A stretch of 64,000 bases of DNA. Source: Zoogloea sp. GTDB taxonomy: Bacteria; Pseudomonadota; Gammaproteobacteria; Burkholderiales; Rhodocyclaceae. Positions within the stretch are counted from its first letter, which is position 1. Every line of letters begins with the position of its first letter. Positions 4,625-27,852 of this stretch are shown piece after piece. The DNA is taken from assembly GCF_009026175.1 (NCBI RefSeq), contig NZ_WBTZ01000002.1; one strand, given 5' to 3'. The translations under genes and the position numbers were made by a program. A model generated the notes under the pieces. That model was not told where the DNA came from. It did no database searches and saw only the letters and a program-made list of their open reading frames with translations.

Positions 4625-4817
4625 TGCCTTTCCATGAGCAGCGCTGCGGATGTAGTGCTTGTAGAGCAGCACCTCATGCGGATGAACAGCGAAAGCCATG
4701 TCAAATCCGTGAGAGGGCACTGGTCAGCGGGTGGTCTGGCCCTGAACTGCTCCCCGGCAAGCACAACTGCCCGGCTTTTGCTGCGCATGTAGCAATGAAG
4801 ATGCTGCCTGGCCAGCA
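4625..4817. promoter_or_regulatory. Cluster of TGCT-N8-AGCA sites between divergent sigma54 promoters
   Basis: Perfect sites at 4656-4671, 4748-4763, 4779-4794 and 4802-4817; one-mismatch site at 4625-4640. Confidence 0.75.
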
Positions 4818-4846
4818 GAACGTTGCTCCCGGGTACGTTTTGGGTA

Positions 4847-4862
4847 TGGCACGCTTTCTGCA
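4847..4862 (+). promoter_or_regulatory. Sigma54 promoter for monooxygenase-sfnR-ribB-like operon
   Basis: TGGCACGCTTTCTGCA. Confidence 0.85.
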
Positions 4863-4900
4863 GAGGGTCTCCGTGTCACCCTGATCGCGGAGCCTTTGCC

Positions 4901-6111
4901 TTGACCCAAGTCTTGAACACGCTGCTCGACCTGCCCGGCGGCACGGTTTCACCGGAACCTCCTGAGCAGATCGCCCGGCGCCTCGCCGAACAATTCGCTG
5001 CCACGGCGGCCGAGCGGGATAGCCTGGGCGGAACGCCCAAGGCGGAGCGGGATGCGCTGCGCCAGAGCGGGCTGCTGGCCCTGTCCATTCCAGTCGAGTA
5101 CGGTGGCCTGGGCGCAAACTGGCGCGAGACCCTGGATGTCGTGCGCATCCTGTCCAGCGCAGACAGCTCCATCGGACATGTCTTCGCCTTCCAGCATCTC
5201 ATGTTGGCAACGGTGAGGCTCTTTTCCCGGCCGAGCCAGTGGGAAGCCTGGTTCGAGCAGACGGCCCGCCACAACTGGTTCTGGGGGAATGCCGTCAATC
5301 CGCTGGACCGTCGCACCGTCAGCCGGAGCCAGGACGGCTGGTACGAGTTTTCCGGGAAGAAGAGCTTCTGCTCCGGTGCGCTCGATTCAGAGATGCTGGT
5401 TGTTTCAGCCTATGCCCAGGACACGCCGCAACAGCTCGTCATCGCCGCGGTGCCGACCGCCCGCAGCGGCATCAACGTGTTGCAGGACTGGGACAATTTC
5501 GGCCAGCGGCAGACCGACAGTGGCAGCGTGAATTTCGAAAGGGTGCGCATCGAGGAGAAGGAGATCCTCGCCGATCCGGGACCGCTGAGCACGCCCTTTG
5601 CCTGCCTGCGCCCGCTCATTGCGCAGCTCATCCTCACCAACATCTACGCCGGCATTGCCGAGGGTGCCTACACGGAGGCCCGTCGCTACAGCCTCCATGA
5701 GGCACGGCCCTGGCATCGCTCCCCGGCCAAGCGTTTCGAGGACGACCCCTATGTGCTGCATCACTACGGAGAGTTCTGGGCGGCGCTCGACGCGGTGCGG
5801 GTGATGACCAACCGGGCGGCGGACCTGCTTGACGCGGGCTGGAACAAGGGAGGGCGCCTGACCGAGGACGAGCGGGGAGACATTGCGCTGGCGATCTCCT
5901 CGGCCAAGGTGCTGGCGACGCGGACAGGGATGGACCTCTGTACGCGCATGTTCGAGGTGACGGGCGCACGTGCCACCCATGCCGGGCTGGGGCTCGACCG
6001 CTATTGGCGCAATCTGCGCACGCACACCATGCACGACCCGATCGATTACAAACTTCTGGAGCTAGGTGAATGGGCCTTGAAGCAACACTACCCGAAGCCG
6101 ACTTTCTACTC

Positions 6112-24190: not shown

Positions 24191-24388
24191 AGGAACTCCG
24201 GAATGCGTGATGTCTAGGGTCGAACTTCGTGACAGGCCTGTGTTGCCATCAAGGCCATGTCCGGCATTCTTTCAGGACAAGACCCCGGTCAGGACCGGCA
24301 GCAGGTTCTTCCATGATGCGTGCAAAGGCCGTCCAGCCAAAAGAAGGAATACTTCAATGCTTGTGAGGCGAAAATCATATCGCTGAGG

Positions 24389-25432
24389 CTAAAGCGACCT
24401 CTTTCTCAACTGAGCCAGCTCAGCCAGTGCTTCCGCCAAGGACGCCTCGGCTTTCTGGGCCCTGACAGTCTCAGCCAGACGAACCTCTTCCACGGCCCGC
24501 GCCCGCGCCTCGGCGGCTGCCACGGCCGACTCCTTGCCGTGGGCGGCTTCGCTGGCCACTTTGAGCTGGGCCTGAAGCCGCTCGATCCGTCCCTCGGCCG
24601 CAGCCAGGGAGGTTTCAGTCTGCCGGGAACGCGAGACAGCCTCCCGCAGCGCGGCCTTGGCCTCCTCGGTCTGCTCCCGCAGGCGGGCCTCCCGATCTTC
24701 CCGGTTGGCCAGTTGCTGGCGCATGGTGGTGATCTCTCCCAGCTTCTCCTGGCGGACCTGATCGATCTGCTTCAGCAGCATGTCGCGATCGAGGGCGCTG
24801 CGTTCCTGCTCTTCCTTGATCGCCGCGCTGTAGCGGTCGCGATCGCTCTGCAGCAGGCGGGTGAGGCGTTCGGACTCTGCAGCGAATTTCTGCTCCCGTT
24901 GCTCGGCAGCTTCATCGAGCAGCTTGACCCGGGTTTCCAGCCCTTCGCGCTGGCGCAGGAACTCCAGCGCCTGATTGCGCAGGTCGCTGATCGTCACGTC
25001 GCGACTCTGCACTGCGGCCTCGAAGGCCTCTATCCTGGCCGCGGCGGTGCTCGCCTCCGCCTCCATGCGACCGATCTGTTCCAGCGCATCGGCCAGCCGG
25101 GCCTCGATGCTCTTCCGCTCCCGCTCCAGCTCCTCACGCTGGCTGGCGAAGAGCTGCTCGGCGTGCTGCAGGGACAAGGACCAGACCTTGCTCATCAGGG
25201 TGTCAGCCGACGAGACGAGCTCGTCCGGCATGCCGGGAACGCTTCGCTGGCGGAAGAACGCGGCGCCCGTCTCACGCCGCCACTGGTCAATGTAGCGCTG
25301 GACGATCTCGCTGGAGCCCTTGTTGCCGAGCTCGGCATAGACAAGGTTGAAAGACGGATTCTCACCGGCGGCCAGCAACTGGAAACAGATCTGTTCTACC
25401 GCTTCGAACGTGACGCTACTACTGCGAGCCAT
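24389..25432 (-). CDS. KfrA_N-type DNA-binding protein with long coiled coil (TnpT/KfrA-like)
   Basis: N-terminal TFEAVEQICFQLLAAGENPSFNLVYAELGNKGSSEIVQRYIDQWR matches the KfrA_N pattern; the remainder is E/R/A/Q-rich heptads. Confidence 0.78.
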   Translation of the reverse strand: MARSSSVTFEAVEQICFQLLAAGENPSFNLVYAELGNKGSSEIVQRYIDQWRRETGAAFFRQRSVPGMPDELVSSADTLMSKVWSLSLQHAEQLFASQREELERERKSIEARLADALEQIGRMEAEASTAAARIEAFEAAVQSRDVTISDLRNQALEFLRQREGLETRVKLLDEAAEQREQKFAAESERLTRLLQSDRDRYSAAIKEEQERSALDRDMLLKQIDQVRQEKLGEITTMRQQLANREDREARLREQTEEAKAALREAVSRSRQTETSLAAAEGRIERLQAQLKVASEAAHGKESAVAAAEARARAVEEVRLAETVRAQKAEASLAEALAELAQLRKRSL

Positions 25433-25567
25433 GGAACATCCCTCTGTTGCACGATGACATCAAATTTCACATCCGAAAAATAACATACGTGTACGTTCGT
25501 ATAACGTTTAATTTGTAACGGTAAGACGAAGCCACTTCCCTGTGGGCTGTTGTGCCCCGGAGGACTG

Positions 25568-26803
25568 TCAGTCCGGCTTGCTGCCAGCCCACGGCAGGCG
25601 CTGCTTCTGGGACTCGTCGTGCCAGCGCTCTTCCTCTTCGTGAATGTAGCGCTGGGTGGTGCGGGCATCCGTATGCCGGGCATCCTTCTGCACGAAGCGC
25701 TCGTCGATGCCACTATCAAGCTTTGCCGTGATGCCGGTATGACGCCCCCAGTGGGCCGAGGCGGCGCGCAGCTTTTCCTTCTTGTGTTCGGCATCCGGGG
25801 GCAGGAGCTCGGCGGCTGCGAAGAAGATCTTCTTGAGGATCTGGTTCAGGCGCCGGGCCGTGATCGGACTTCCATCCTTCACCGAGACCAGGATTGGCGT
25901 GGTGTCGTCCCGGCGGGGTACCGCGCTCAGCCCCAGGTACTTCCGGTAGCGGATGAGCGCCTGCAGCATGTCGTCAGCCACAGGAACCTTGGCCTTCTTG
26001 CCCCCCTTCCCCACCACATGCCACCACCAGCGCCCCCGCTCTTCACGGAAGCTGTTCATGCGATGGCTTTCCAGTTCGCCGGCGCGGGGGGCGAGCATGT
26101 ACAGCGTGGCAGCGAGAAAGCGGGCTCGCTCGTACTCGTCCCGACCCCGCTCCGCGTCTCGGGGCATGGCCTCGATTGCGGCGGTCACGGCCTGCCACAT
26201 CTGCTCATCCAGGAAGCGCTCGATCTTCTCCACCTCGTCCGTGGAGGCCACGGCACGCAAGGGACCGGCAGCTTCGGCGGACATCTTGCGGCGGCGCTGA
26301 CGGATCAGGCCCAGCGGGTTGCCCATCAGGTAGCCGGCATCGACGAGATAGCGCATCAGGGAGTTGATGGCGGCCATGGCGGTCAGCACCGCGCTCTCGC
26401 TCAGCGGTCCCACGAAAGGACGCCAGCGCTCGGAGACCCGCTCGACCTTGGGGCCGCACCACAGGCTGGCTGGCTGGGGGTCGGCGAGAAAGTTGAGGTA
26501 GCCCTCGAAATCCTGGCGATTCAGGCTGGACAAGGGCTTGCTGCAGTCGATCAGCGCCCACAGGAGCAGGCGTTCGCACTCCCGCTGGTAGATCCGGTAG
26601 GTACCGGGCGAACGGTCGTATTCGGTGAGAAAACAGCGGATGGCCTCCGCATCCGTCCGGGCGGAAATCTGCAGTCGGGCAGGATCGGCCCGATTCTCAC
26701 CGCGACTGCCGTCGAGGTCTGCAGGGATAAGCACCTCGTCGAGCGGGCGAACCGGAATGACGGGAGTCGGAACGGTATTGGGGCTGGGGCTGGGCGAATT
26801 CAT
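25568..26803 (-). CDS. Tyrosine recombinase/integrase with SAM-like N-domain
   Basis: Complete R-K-H-R-H-Y catalytic set: APRAGE, VVGKGGK, AHWGRH, ARHTDARTTQRY; N-terminal TYRIYQRECERLLLW core-binding region. Confidence 0.9.
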   Translation of the reverse strand: MNSPSPSPNTVPTPVIPVRPLDEVLIPADLDGSRGENRADPARLQISARTDAEAIRCFLTEYDRSPGTYRIYQRECERLLLWALIDCSKPLSSLNRQDFEGYLNFLADPQPASLWCGPKVERVSERWRPFVGPLSESAVLTAMAAINSLMRYLVDAGYLMGNPLGLIRQRRRKMSAEAAGPLRAVASTDEVEKIERFLDEQMWQAVTAAIEAMPRDAERGRDEYERARFLAATLYMLAPRAGELESHRMNSFREERGRWWWHVVGKGGKKAKVPVADDMLQALIRYRKYLGLSAVPRRDDTTPILVSVKDGSPITARRLNQILKKIFFAAAELLPPDAEHKKEKLRAASAHWGRHTGITAKLDSGIDERFVQKDARHTDARTTQRYIHEEEERWHDESQKQRLPWAGSKPD

Positions 26804-26847
26804 GCCCGGCAGTTTAGCCGGAGGACCTACCTCGCACGCAAGGGGGC

Positions 26848-26875
26848 TTGCCTCTCATTGGTTACTGTATATAAT
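26848..26875 (+). promoter_or_regulatory. Sigma70 promoter overlapped by the LexA box
   Basis: TTGCCT (26848-26853), 16-bp spacer, TATAAT (26870-26875). Confidence 0.65.
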
Positions 26876-26882
26876 CACAGTC
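26863..26882. promoter_or_regulatory. LexA (SOS) box
   Basis: TACTGTATATAATCACAGTC: CTGT-N8-ACAG core, 16/20 identical to TACTG(TA)5CAGTA. Confidence 0.88.
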
Positions 26883-26976
26883 ATGGCATTCCTGAGCCCG
26901 GGCAGGGAGGAACGCCAGCATTATCTGGCGCAAGAAATGCAAGGCGCCTCAACTGCTTATCTGGAAGGAGTCCAGC

Positions 26977-27150
26977 ATGGAAACCCTGATTTGTCGCATC
27001 CTCATGGCAAGTGGTCTGGTCGTTGGCGTTCTGCTGGCAGGCGGTCAAGGCATGCAGGCGGTGGTTCCGGCCCTGCTTGCCCTGGTCGGTGTCGCCCTGC
27101 TCCGCCGTGTGGCGCCGTCGCTGCCCTGGCGTCTGGGCCGTCACTTCTGA
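26977..27150 (+). CDS. Small 57-aa predicted two-helix membrane protein (not in ORF track)
   Basis: AAGGAG RBS 6 nt before ATG; METLICRILMASGLVVGVLLAGGQGMQAVVPALLALVGVALLRRVAPSLPWRLGRHF; fills the gap between promoter and convergent ankyrin gene. Confidence 0.7.
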   Translation: METLICRILMASGLVVGVLLAGGQGMQAVVPALLALVGVALLRRVAPSLPWRLGRHF

Positions 27151-27183
27151 CCCGGCGGGTGGGCCGCTTGCGGGCCTGTTCTT

Positions 27184-27852
27184 TCAACGCCCTTTGGCCG
27201 CCCGCGCCTTGCGCTCCGCCTGGATGAGGCCAGCAATGTCCGTGTTCCGGCTCTTGATGGCCCAGCTCTCGGCGCTTTCCTTCTGGTCATTCAGCAGGTC
27301 GAGATCGGCGCCCGCCTTGAGCAGGCGGATCACGACCTCCTCGTGCCCGTTACGCGCAGCAAACATCAGGGGCGTGGCCTGGTTGGGGGCCTTGGCGTTC
27401 GGGTTGGCGCCTTTGGTCAAGAGCAGGTCAACAATCGCCAGGCGGCCTTCGAAGGCTGCATACAGCAAGGGGTTCCAGCCCTCGTGGCGGAAATCGGCAC
27501 CGGCCCCGAGCAGCAGACTGGCTACTTCGGTATGCCCCTTCAGGCTGGCCAGCATCAGTGCGCTATCGCCGGCCGCGTTGCGTGCATCAAGCTTGATGCC
27601 GCGCTGGCGCAACAGTTCCGCCACCACCTTGGGCTGGTCCTCACGGGCCGCCAGGATCAGCAGGCTGTTGCCGTTCTCGTCGGTGGAGTTCACATCCATG
27701 CCCTTGGCCACCTGGCGGGAGACTTCCCTCGCATCCCCCAGCTTGGCGGCATTCAGAAGATCGTCGAGGGTGTCGGCACTGACGGGCAGGGACAACTGCA
27801 TCGCCACCAGGGCGGTGAGCAGGTGGCGGAAGCGGGGTCGGGGTGAGTTCAT
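27184..27852 (-). CDS. Ankyrin-repeat protein with signal peptide
   Basis: Repeated GNSLLILAA / GDSALMLAS / GWNPLLYAA / QATPLMFAA ankyrin motifs; overlaps the tatD stop. Confidence 0.9.
   Translation of the reverse strand: MNSPRPRFRHLLTALVAMQLSLPVSADTLDDLLNAAKLGDAREVSRQVAKGMDVNSTDENGNSLLILAAREDQPKVVAELLRQRGIKLDARNAAGDSALMLASLKGHTEVASLLLGAGADFRHEGWNPLLYAAFEGRLAIVDLLLTKGANPNAKAPNQATPLMFAARNGHEEVVIRLLKAGADLDLLNDQKESAESWAIKSRNTDIAGLIQAERKARAAKGR

Follow-up and report, generated by a model that had tools for sequence, protein, structure and literature searches.

A putative XerL-like recombinase and its 28-bp site at the replication terminus of Zoogloea and related Betaproteobacteria

Organization and conservation of the locus

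The locus studied here lies in a 64-kb stretch of the genome of Zoogloea sp. (assembly GCF_009026175.1), which we refer to as the window. It comprises a tyrosine recombinase gene, a gene encoding a KfrA_N/coiled-coil protein (the kfrA-like gene), and a divergent open reading frame (ORF) for a small membrane protein, with a LexA box between the recombinase gene and the small ORF (Table 1). As argued below, the recombinase and a 28-bp palindromic site located outside the window are likely to form a chromosome-dimer resolution system that resembles XerL of Legionellales and replaces XerC and XerD (XerCD) in a clade of Betaproteobacteria. The source assembly is 98.5% complete and consists of 305 contigs (5.4 Mb); its contigs are given below as C numbers, and the compared loci of this and other genomes as L numbers.

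Table 1 Features of the recombinase locus in the window
Feature	Position	Strand	Basis or remark
KfrA_N/coiled-coil gene (347 aa)	24389-25432	-	ORF and Pfam
Intergenic region with kfrA-like promoter and ACGT-rich inverted-repeat core	25433-25567 (core ~25478-25527)	-	
Tyrosine recombinase gene (411 aa)	25568-26803	-	ORF and Pfam
Putative recombinase -10 element, TAAACT	26811-26816	-	7 nt before ATG; no Shine-Dalgarno sequence
Predicted sigma-70 promoter of the small ORF, TTGCCT-16-TATAAT	26848-26875	+	10/12 consensus matches
LexA box, CTGTATATAATCACAG	26865-26880	not assigned	pattern scan and conservation
Small membrane-protein ORF (57 aa)	26977-27150	+	ORF; Shine-Dalgarno AAGGAG at 26965-26970

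An earlier note on this DNA had placed three ORFs and a LexA box at these positions, and the ORF calls, Pfam searches, and pattern scan agreed with it. The near-consensus LexA box, which it put about 60 bp from the recombinase start, was measured at 62 bp from the recombinase ATG.

We compared 77 loci with relatives of the recombinase (the synteny sample). Gene order was constant in about 30 Zoogloea genomes, where holB-pilZ-tatD-ank was followed by the divergent small ORF, the LexA box, the recombinase gene, and the kfrA-like gene. The neighbors at the locus were a nitroreductase gene and ank-tatD-pilZ-holB, and the fixed place beside ank-tatD that had been put forward for a synteny check was confirmed in these genomes. 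All three genes were found together in Zoogloea only (26 of the 28 assessable loci), and their supposed co-occurrence thus held within this genus and failed in other genera. The loci of Methyloversatilis, Candidatus Methylophosphatis, Sterolibacterium, Sulfurisoma, and Georgfuchsia had other neighbors and lacked the LexA box, the small ORF, and the kfrA-like gene. Beyond Zoogloea, the sole constant pairing was that of the recombinase with the 28-bp site.

The recombinase and its relatives

The recombinase matched the Pfam family Phage_integrase (9e-12) and kept the complete catalytic set of R240, K266, H351-x-x-R354, H377, and Y386 (motif positions), as expected from its earlier description as a catalytically intact tyrosine recombinase. 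Homologues with 70-96% identity were found in Zoogloea, Methyloversatilis, Sterolibacteriaceae, and Sulfurisoma. The identity in genera beyond Zoogloea (77-82%) exceeded the conservation of housekeeping neighbors such as holB. The codon composition of the recombinase and kfrA-like genes, including GC3, resembled that of the host.

The comparison with XerL was made with the tyrosine recombinase of the Coxiella plasmid QpH1. The QpH1 protein was 32% identical to the window recombinase (E 6e-51). In a maximum-likelihood tree, it grouped with the clade of Gallionellaceae and Zoogloea/Sterolibacteriaceae (95/89), far from XerC and XerD. Xer chains in the PDB matched the window recombinase weakly by sequence (E ~1e-3).

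We also considered whether the recombinase might be an integron integrase (IntI). This identity was rejected, as the score with model TIGR02249 was 23 bits against a cut-off of 265, no integron cassette array was seen at the locus, and the LexA box lies off the recombinase promoter.

Two metagenome-assembled genomes (MAGs) carry further homologues. The 72%-identical recombinase of MAG RBC049 (L004, identical to L081) lies between merR-ihfA-pheT and a tRNA gene, with a ~55-bp imperfect direct repeat of the recombinase 3' end just downstream (L004 1279-1500), and the 28-bp site was not found in this genome at up to three mismatches. A Candidatus Competibacter MAG (L092) encodes a 46%-identical recombinase and lacks XerD.

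A conserved 28-bp palindromic site

The candidate recombination site is a perfect 28-bp palindrome of 11-6-11 architecture, ACTTCTGAAAA-CAGTAA-TTTTCAGAAGT, which in many Zoogloea loci was found 3' of the kfrA-like gene. Across genera it was identical or differed by at most three mismatches and was embedded in unrelated flanking DNA. Its position relative to the recombinase gene varied. The site was located 1.2-3.1 kb beyond the recombinase stop codon in 13 Zoogloea loci, ~25-70 bp 5' of the recombinase ATG and over the -35 element in Sterolibacterium-type loci, and 1.5-27 kb from the gene in Methyloversatilis, including some genomes in which it was 1.5 kb upstream.

The whole genomes of 24 recombinase carriers were scanned for the site with up to three mismatches, and a control pattern was run alongside. 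Of the 24 genomes, 18 had exactly one copy and one had a pair of copies spaced by 7 kb. The copies were located 25 bp to ~27 kb from the gene, and the control pattern gave zero matches. Two genomes carried matched changes in both arms (AGTTCTG...CAGAACT). Recognition of two identical arms by a homodimer would predict such a symmetric variant.

No copy of the site lies inside the 64-kb window. In the source genome, the full site is present at C150:5049 and a hybrid copy at C263:3101-3128, and the window's own contig has the left arm and spacer at C50:1043-1069, at a distance of 35 kb from the recombinase gene. Prophage repeats break the assembly around the site. The statement in the earlier note that the locus has no att repeats or tRNA is correct inside the window, where we found no tRNA genes; the cognate site was missed because the window edge excluded it, and it is present on the same contig and on two others.

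A Gallionellaceae MAG (L093) without an XerD match has another perfect 11-6-11 palindrome, AGCTCTGATTA-TTGATA-TAATCAGAGCT, ~100 bp 5' of a 45%-identical recombinase, and this pair may represent a second variant of the same system. At L047, L048, and L053, the site is contained within longer, species-specific perfect inverted repeats (for example, ccacccctct...agagggtgg) just 3' of the kfrA-like gene; such extended, hairpin-capable flanks are present in some Zoogloea species only.

Absence of XerCD and position at the replication terminus

Neither XerD nor XerC was found in the source genome, where the best match to the XerD model TIGR02225 (cut-off 329.6 bits) was a transposon-type recombinase with 145 bits, and no canonical dif was found within seven mismatches. 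Six of 121 Rhodocyclaceae genomes encoded a homologue of the recombinase with at least 78% identity. All of these lacked XerD and the XerC cross-hit, and XerD was above the cut-off in 105 of the 115 other genomes (p = 2e-6, Fisher's test). XerD was likewise above the cut-off in none of 28 further recombinase carriers.

The site is located where replication is expected to end. On one Methyloversatilis chromosome (4.38 Mb), it lies at 50.2% of the length, and the sampled GC skew was positive before it and negative after it. We also counted the FtsK-orienting polar sequence (KOPS) motif GGGNAGGG as forward:reverse ratios. On this chromosome the ratio was 20:8 before the site and 4:16 after it. 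On a 1.18-Mb Zoogloea contig, KOPS polarity switched exactly at the site, with ratios of 32:6 in the 120 kb to its left and 2:18 in the 120 kb to its right. The counts in the source genome were 4:36 for C50 and 2:8 for C263, both directed to the half-site ends, and the window is therefore terminus-proximal. The source genome encodes FtsK with a gamma domain.

Filamentous prophages in the site

Prophages occupied the site in members of two genera. M. universalis EHg5 has a 7-kb inovirus-like prophage bracketed by its two site copies. This prophage encodes a repressor, a Zot-like assembly ATPase, and an initiator of rolling-circle replication; no integrase gene was found in it. In the source genome, two inverted inovirus gene sets surround the full site on C150 (L157 1-9444), and phage repressor genes stand beside the hybrid sites at the ends of C50 (C50:1-1070, L159) and C263 (C263:1-3130, L158). 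The inovirus-like DNA of this genome encodes two Zot-like assembly ATPases, phrog_4352 and phrog_4994 proteins, and repressors, and has a GC content of 51-59%, compared with 65.5% for the genome.

By analogy with known cases, the occupation of the site by integrase-less filamentous prophages is the behavior of elements that borrow a host Xer system. The CTX phage uses dif, and the element LME-1 uses the dif site of Legionella. If the 28-bp site serves as a dif, the integration of filamentous phages at this position would be explained.

A probable single-recombinase system in place of XerCD

The XerCD/dif system is among the most conserved bacterial systems, and its known replacements are few (XerS, XerH, XerA, and XerL). 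The conservation of the site, its copy number, its terminus position, the absence of XerCD, the prophage occupancy, and the homology to XerL all argue that the recombinase and the 28-bp site most likely form an XerL-like single-recombinase system for chromosome-dimer resolution that has replaced XerCD. The proposed replacement concerns a clade of Rhodocyclaceae with Zoogloea, Methyloversatilis, Sterolibacterium, Sulfurisoma, Georgfuchsia, and Candidatus Methylophosphatis. Of the two explanations offered in the earlier note, that of a domesticated chromosome-resolution system was right in substance.

Several points weigh against this conclusion. Five of the 24 recombinase-positive genomes had no match to the site at up to three mismatches. 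The site region of the source genome is split over three contigs, and its arrangement was reconstructed and not read; the GC skew was taken from 20-kb samples and is noisy. The QpH1 recombinase was equated with XerL by the published description (plasmid-borne, catalytic Tyr near 389) and not by accession, and its branch in the tree is long (2.2), which makes the sister position to XerL provisional. In addition, homologues at ~40% identity share genomes with XerCD; the replacement of XerCD is thus restricted to this clade, and membership in the family alone is not diagnostic.

In the mechanism that we propose, two copies of the recombinase would bind the identical 11-bp arms of the site. When sister chromosomes have been fused by homologous recombination, two copies of the site would meet at the septum, probably through KOPS-guided FtsK, and recombination of the paired sites across the 6-bp spacer would resolve the dimer.

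If this holds, the system would be a further replacement of XerCD and, as far as we could find, the first for Betaproteobacteria, in the wastewater-dominant Zoogloea, Methyloversatilis, and Sterolibacteriaceae. Our literature search turned up no account of a comparable system for these genera or for Betaproteobacteria. It would also tie the XerL of Legionella into a broader family of TnpS-like recombinases with KfrA_N helpers, suggesting a route by which a resolution module of mobile elements can be domesticated for the resolution of chromosome dimers. The 28-bp site could be used to map the terminus of these organisms and to build tools for marker excision or integration.

The LexA box and the small membrane protein

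The LexA box is the sole CTGT-N8-ACAG in the window, but 0.72 would be expected by chance, so the bare pattern is not significant. The 5.4-Mb source genome contains 27 such patterns in total and a LexA gene (C93:11352-11930), and the window box is of the same type as the genome's recA box CTGTATAAAATGACAG and lexA box CTGTATAAAATTACAC. The box was kept in all ~30 Zoogloea loci, a few of them with one mismatch.

The promoter predicted for the small ORF was the only strong one in 24250-27250 (shuffles gave a mean of 0.2), and its TATAAT -10 element lies inside the LexA box. The spacing of the -35 element (gcaag on the opposite strand), the box, and the -10 element was constant in all Zoogloea loci. 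Some of these loci have a second LexA box, CTGTACGCAAGTACAG, over the -35 element of the small ORF and ~90 bp 5' of the recombinase (L047 and L048; with one mismatch in L043, L044, and L055). This tandem-operator form of the SOS promoter was seen in one Zoogloea subgroup.

The recombinase gene appears to have its own promoter. A TAnnnT motif was found 6-8 nt before the recombinase ATG in 38 of 58 homologous loci across genera, and a Shine-Dalgarno-like motif in none. A -10 element so near the ATG, together with the lack of a Shine-Dalgarno sequence, suggests that the recombinase mRNA is probably leaderless and transcribed from this promoter. In the window, the LexA box lies ~25-40 bp 5' of the presumed recombinase -35 element, and its distance to the recombinase promoter and ATG varies among Zoogloea species. 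The location of the box on the -10 element of the small ORF, the fixed geometry, and the separate promoters of the recombinase and kfrA-like genes point to the small ORF as the SOS target. We therefore think it probable that the LexA box governs the gene of the small membrane protein, in which case LexA at the box would repress the divergent promoter. The designation of the whole locus as an SOS-controlled module, given in the earlier note, finds no support where the other two genes are concerned, which appear to have promoters of their own.

Alternatively, LexA might co-repress the recombinase, through it the kfrA-like gene, and the small ORF, which would make the entire module damage-inducible. 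The box does lie between divergent genes, at 62 bp from the start codon of the recombinase, and even a Zoogloea genome with other neighbors (L064) keeps the box linked to the small ORF and the recombinase. Since chromosome dimers are a product of recombinational repair, and since ftsK of E. coli is served by an SOS promoter, it would be sensible for a dimer-resolving recombinase to be inducible. However, the box is on the -10 element of a promoter that faces away from the recombinase, in a geometry that does not change, whereas its distance to the recombinase promoter is species-variable, with the box upstream of the presumed -35 element and the -10 element 6-8 nt from the ATG. Furthermore, no LexA box was found beside the recombinase outside Zoogloea in the synteny sample, and a separate conserved promoter precedes the kfrA-like gene. 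We consider such joint control unlikely.

The 57-aa protein has two predicted hydrophobic helices and a basic tail, and members of its family are 57-68 aa long. The family shares 17 invariant residues (in LICR, GVLLAGG, and PSLPWR) and a conserved AAGGAG Shine-Dalgarno sequence. A script-based scan found the ORF in every Zoogloea locus except two, one of which proved on inspection by eye to have it as well. The protein matched no Pfam family, even at E <= 10, and a profile search of 1.8 billion representatives returned 10 clusters only, all close relatives. The small ORF is a probable lineage-specific SOS gene. No SulA was found in the source genome, and a predicted SOS-controlled membrane peptide restricted to one lineage is of interest in such a genome. 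By analogy, one might guess that the peptide is a division inhibitor like SidA or a membrane toxin like TisB.

In a more speculative extension, the Zoogloea locus would function at the terminus as one integrated damage-response unit: the SOS peptide would replace SulA and delay septum closure, and the recombinase, helped by its KfrA_N partner, would resolve the dimers newly formed by recombinational repair. We regard this extension as doubtful. If true, it would couple division arrest with dimer resolution both physically and in regulation, which to our knowledge is not known in any Xer system.

Other AT-rich CTGT-N8-ACAG boxes in the source genome are located at C196:10911, C284:5155, C177:22254, and C173:56880. 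One of them lies 20 bp 5' of a radical-SAM gene that is divergent from a sensor kinase gene, and one lies 5' of a gene of the VOC/glyoxalase family. The genes behind these boxes are candidate members of the LexA regulon.

The kfrA-like gene

The kfrA-like protein matched PF11740 (KfrA_N) with 8e-20 and 72 bits against a cut-off of 26, and gave weak matches to SMC coiled coils, in keeping with a KfrA_N domain and a long coiled coil. Its N-terminus was ~29% identical to IncP KfrA over ~105 residues. The gene was present at 26 of the 28 assessable Zoogloea loci and absent at the recombinase loci outside Zoogloea. In the intergenic region upstream of it, the core cgtaYACGTATGnTAw and an upstream -35-like element were kept in 27 Zoogloea loci with variable flanks, and the ACGT-rich inverted-repeat core is possibly an autoregulatory operator.

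A divergent KfrA_N gene accompanied distant homologues of the recombinase in 12 of 12 Halomonas loci and in several Burkholderiales. In Halomonas/Vreelandella (L096-L104, L106-L109; ~4700-6000), a ~370-aa KfrA_N/coiled-coil gene is divergent from a 35-38%-identical recombinase, and AT-rich palindromes such as aattacgtattatgtaatacgtaatt lie between the two genes, an arrangement that resembles a chromosomal TnpS/TnpT-like module. The comparison with TnpS/TnpT pairs drawn in the earlier note was apt in view of this divergent layout with palindromes between the genes. It should be noted that searches of plasmids for a KfrA_N identity of TnpT gave only 'DNA-binding protein' annotations. One Xanthomonas match was found in a context resembling the described TnXocp1-type transposon. 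The kfrA-like gene is best described as a retained, dispensable, helper-type partner of this recombinase family; it would have descended from the helper of a TnpS/TnpT-like layout and would act as an optional accessory.

This relationship raises the alternative that the locus is an orphaned TnpS/TnpT-type module for cointegrate or multimer resolution, derived from a Tn3-family transposon or a plasmid and without a role in segregation. Consistent with this, the window recombinase is ~31% identical to the tyrosine resolvase of Tn4401 and likewise to many plasmid integrases, the wider family typically has a KfrA_N partner, and homologues at ~40% identity coexist with XerCD. Such an origin without a segregation role is nevertheless very improbable for the Zoogloea locus, given the lack of transposase and plasmid genes nearby, the host-like GC3, the 78-96% conservation across genera (above that of holB), the single-copy site at the terminus, and the absence of XerCD in the carriers. 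A Tn3-family TnpS/TnpT module was rejected because there is no adjacent tnpA and because the two genes stand in tandem rather than divergently, with the 28-bp site located elsewhere.

Flanking DNA and the genomic island alternative

Synteny among Zoogloea species ends exactly at the stop codon of the kfrA-like gene. In the source genome, ~32 kb of organosulfur and ABC-transport genes follow 3' of this gene (window 1-24360; C50:3100-35050), and the far border of the segment is an MscS/cNMP-binding channel gene (C50:1392-2912). The segment is absent from Zoogloea dura, where the channel gene directly follows the kfrA-like gene. The position of the window in the terminus region accounts for this break in synteny and for the accumulation of the sulfur cluster and filamentous prophages between recombinase gene and site. 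No transposase genes were found in the gene map of the window.

In principle, the recombinase could serve a genomic island as an integrase that acts at the 28-bp site; the island would be the 32-kb organosulfur region or else a minimal mobile element. The synteny break, the absence of the 32 kb from Z. dura, and the tRNA that adjoins the recombinase gene in some distant relatives would suit this explanation; we give it hardly any weight, as the gene is fixed beside ank-tatD in ~30 Zoogloea species regardless of the downstream DNA, there is normally one site per genome, and the elements inside the site are filamentous phages without an integrase. The 28-bp site is missing from the junctions of the 32-kb region, which was therefore rejected as a site-borne island. 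The second explanation in the earlier note, a minimal SOS-activated mobile element, was rejected as well.

Comparison with known systems

The kfrA-like protein resembles KfrA of IncP-1 plasmids in its KfrA_N domain, its long coiled coil, and the inverted repeats at its promoter, which suggest autoregulation. It differs in its chromosomal place beside a recombinase, in the lack of kfrB/kfrC and partition genes, and in its low identity to KfrA (~29%). The small membrane protein recalls the SOS-induced SidA of Caulobacter and TisB and DinQ of E. coli, which are also short, hydrophobic proteins with a LexA box over the promoter -10 element. However, there is no sequence similarity to these proteins, and the family described here has 57-68 aa, two predicted helices, and a basic tail.

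With the TnpS-TnpT/rst modules of Tn4651-type Tn3-family transposons, the locus shares a palindromic core site and a large, Cre-like recombinase with a DNA-binding, coiled-coil helper. Unlike in those modules, there is no transposase, the genes are in tandem and do not enclose the site, most carriers lack the helper, and the context is a chromosomal terminus in genomes that have lost XerCD.

XerS/difSL of streptococci and lactococci and XerH/difH of Helicobacter and Campylobacter likewise use one recombinase instead of XerCD, in a linked module of gene and site at the terminus. They belong to other phyla and show no close sequence relationship to the system described here, and the dyad symmetry of their sites is imperfect.

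The closest likeness is to XerL/dif, described for Lpg1867 of Legionella pneumophila and the plasmid-borne XerL of Coxiella burnetii in a survey that covered Legionellales only, where the arms of dif are 10 and 12 bp long (PMC9765430). An inverted-repeat scan of the Coxiella plasmid locus gave no convincing dif by its xerL. The system described here differs from XerL/dif in its host class, Betaproteobacteria, in the arm sequence, and in the linkage of gene and site, which is usually 25 bp to a few kb compared with >400 kb in L. pneumophila. In Zoogloea, it further differs by the KfrA_N partner and the divergent peptide gene with its predicted LexA control. Nevertheless, both systems have a single tyrosine recombinase of ~400 aa and no XerC/XerD, and both have long, perfectly symmetric arms (10-12 bp in Legionellales, 11 bp here). 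Both sites occur in non-coding DNA whose neighbors vary, close to the position where GC skew switches, and both are used by integrase-less elements, LME-1 in Legionella and inoviruses in the genomes studied here.

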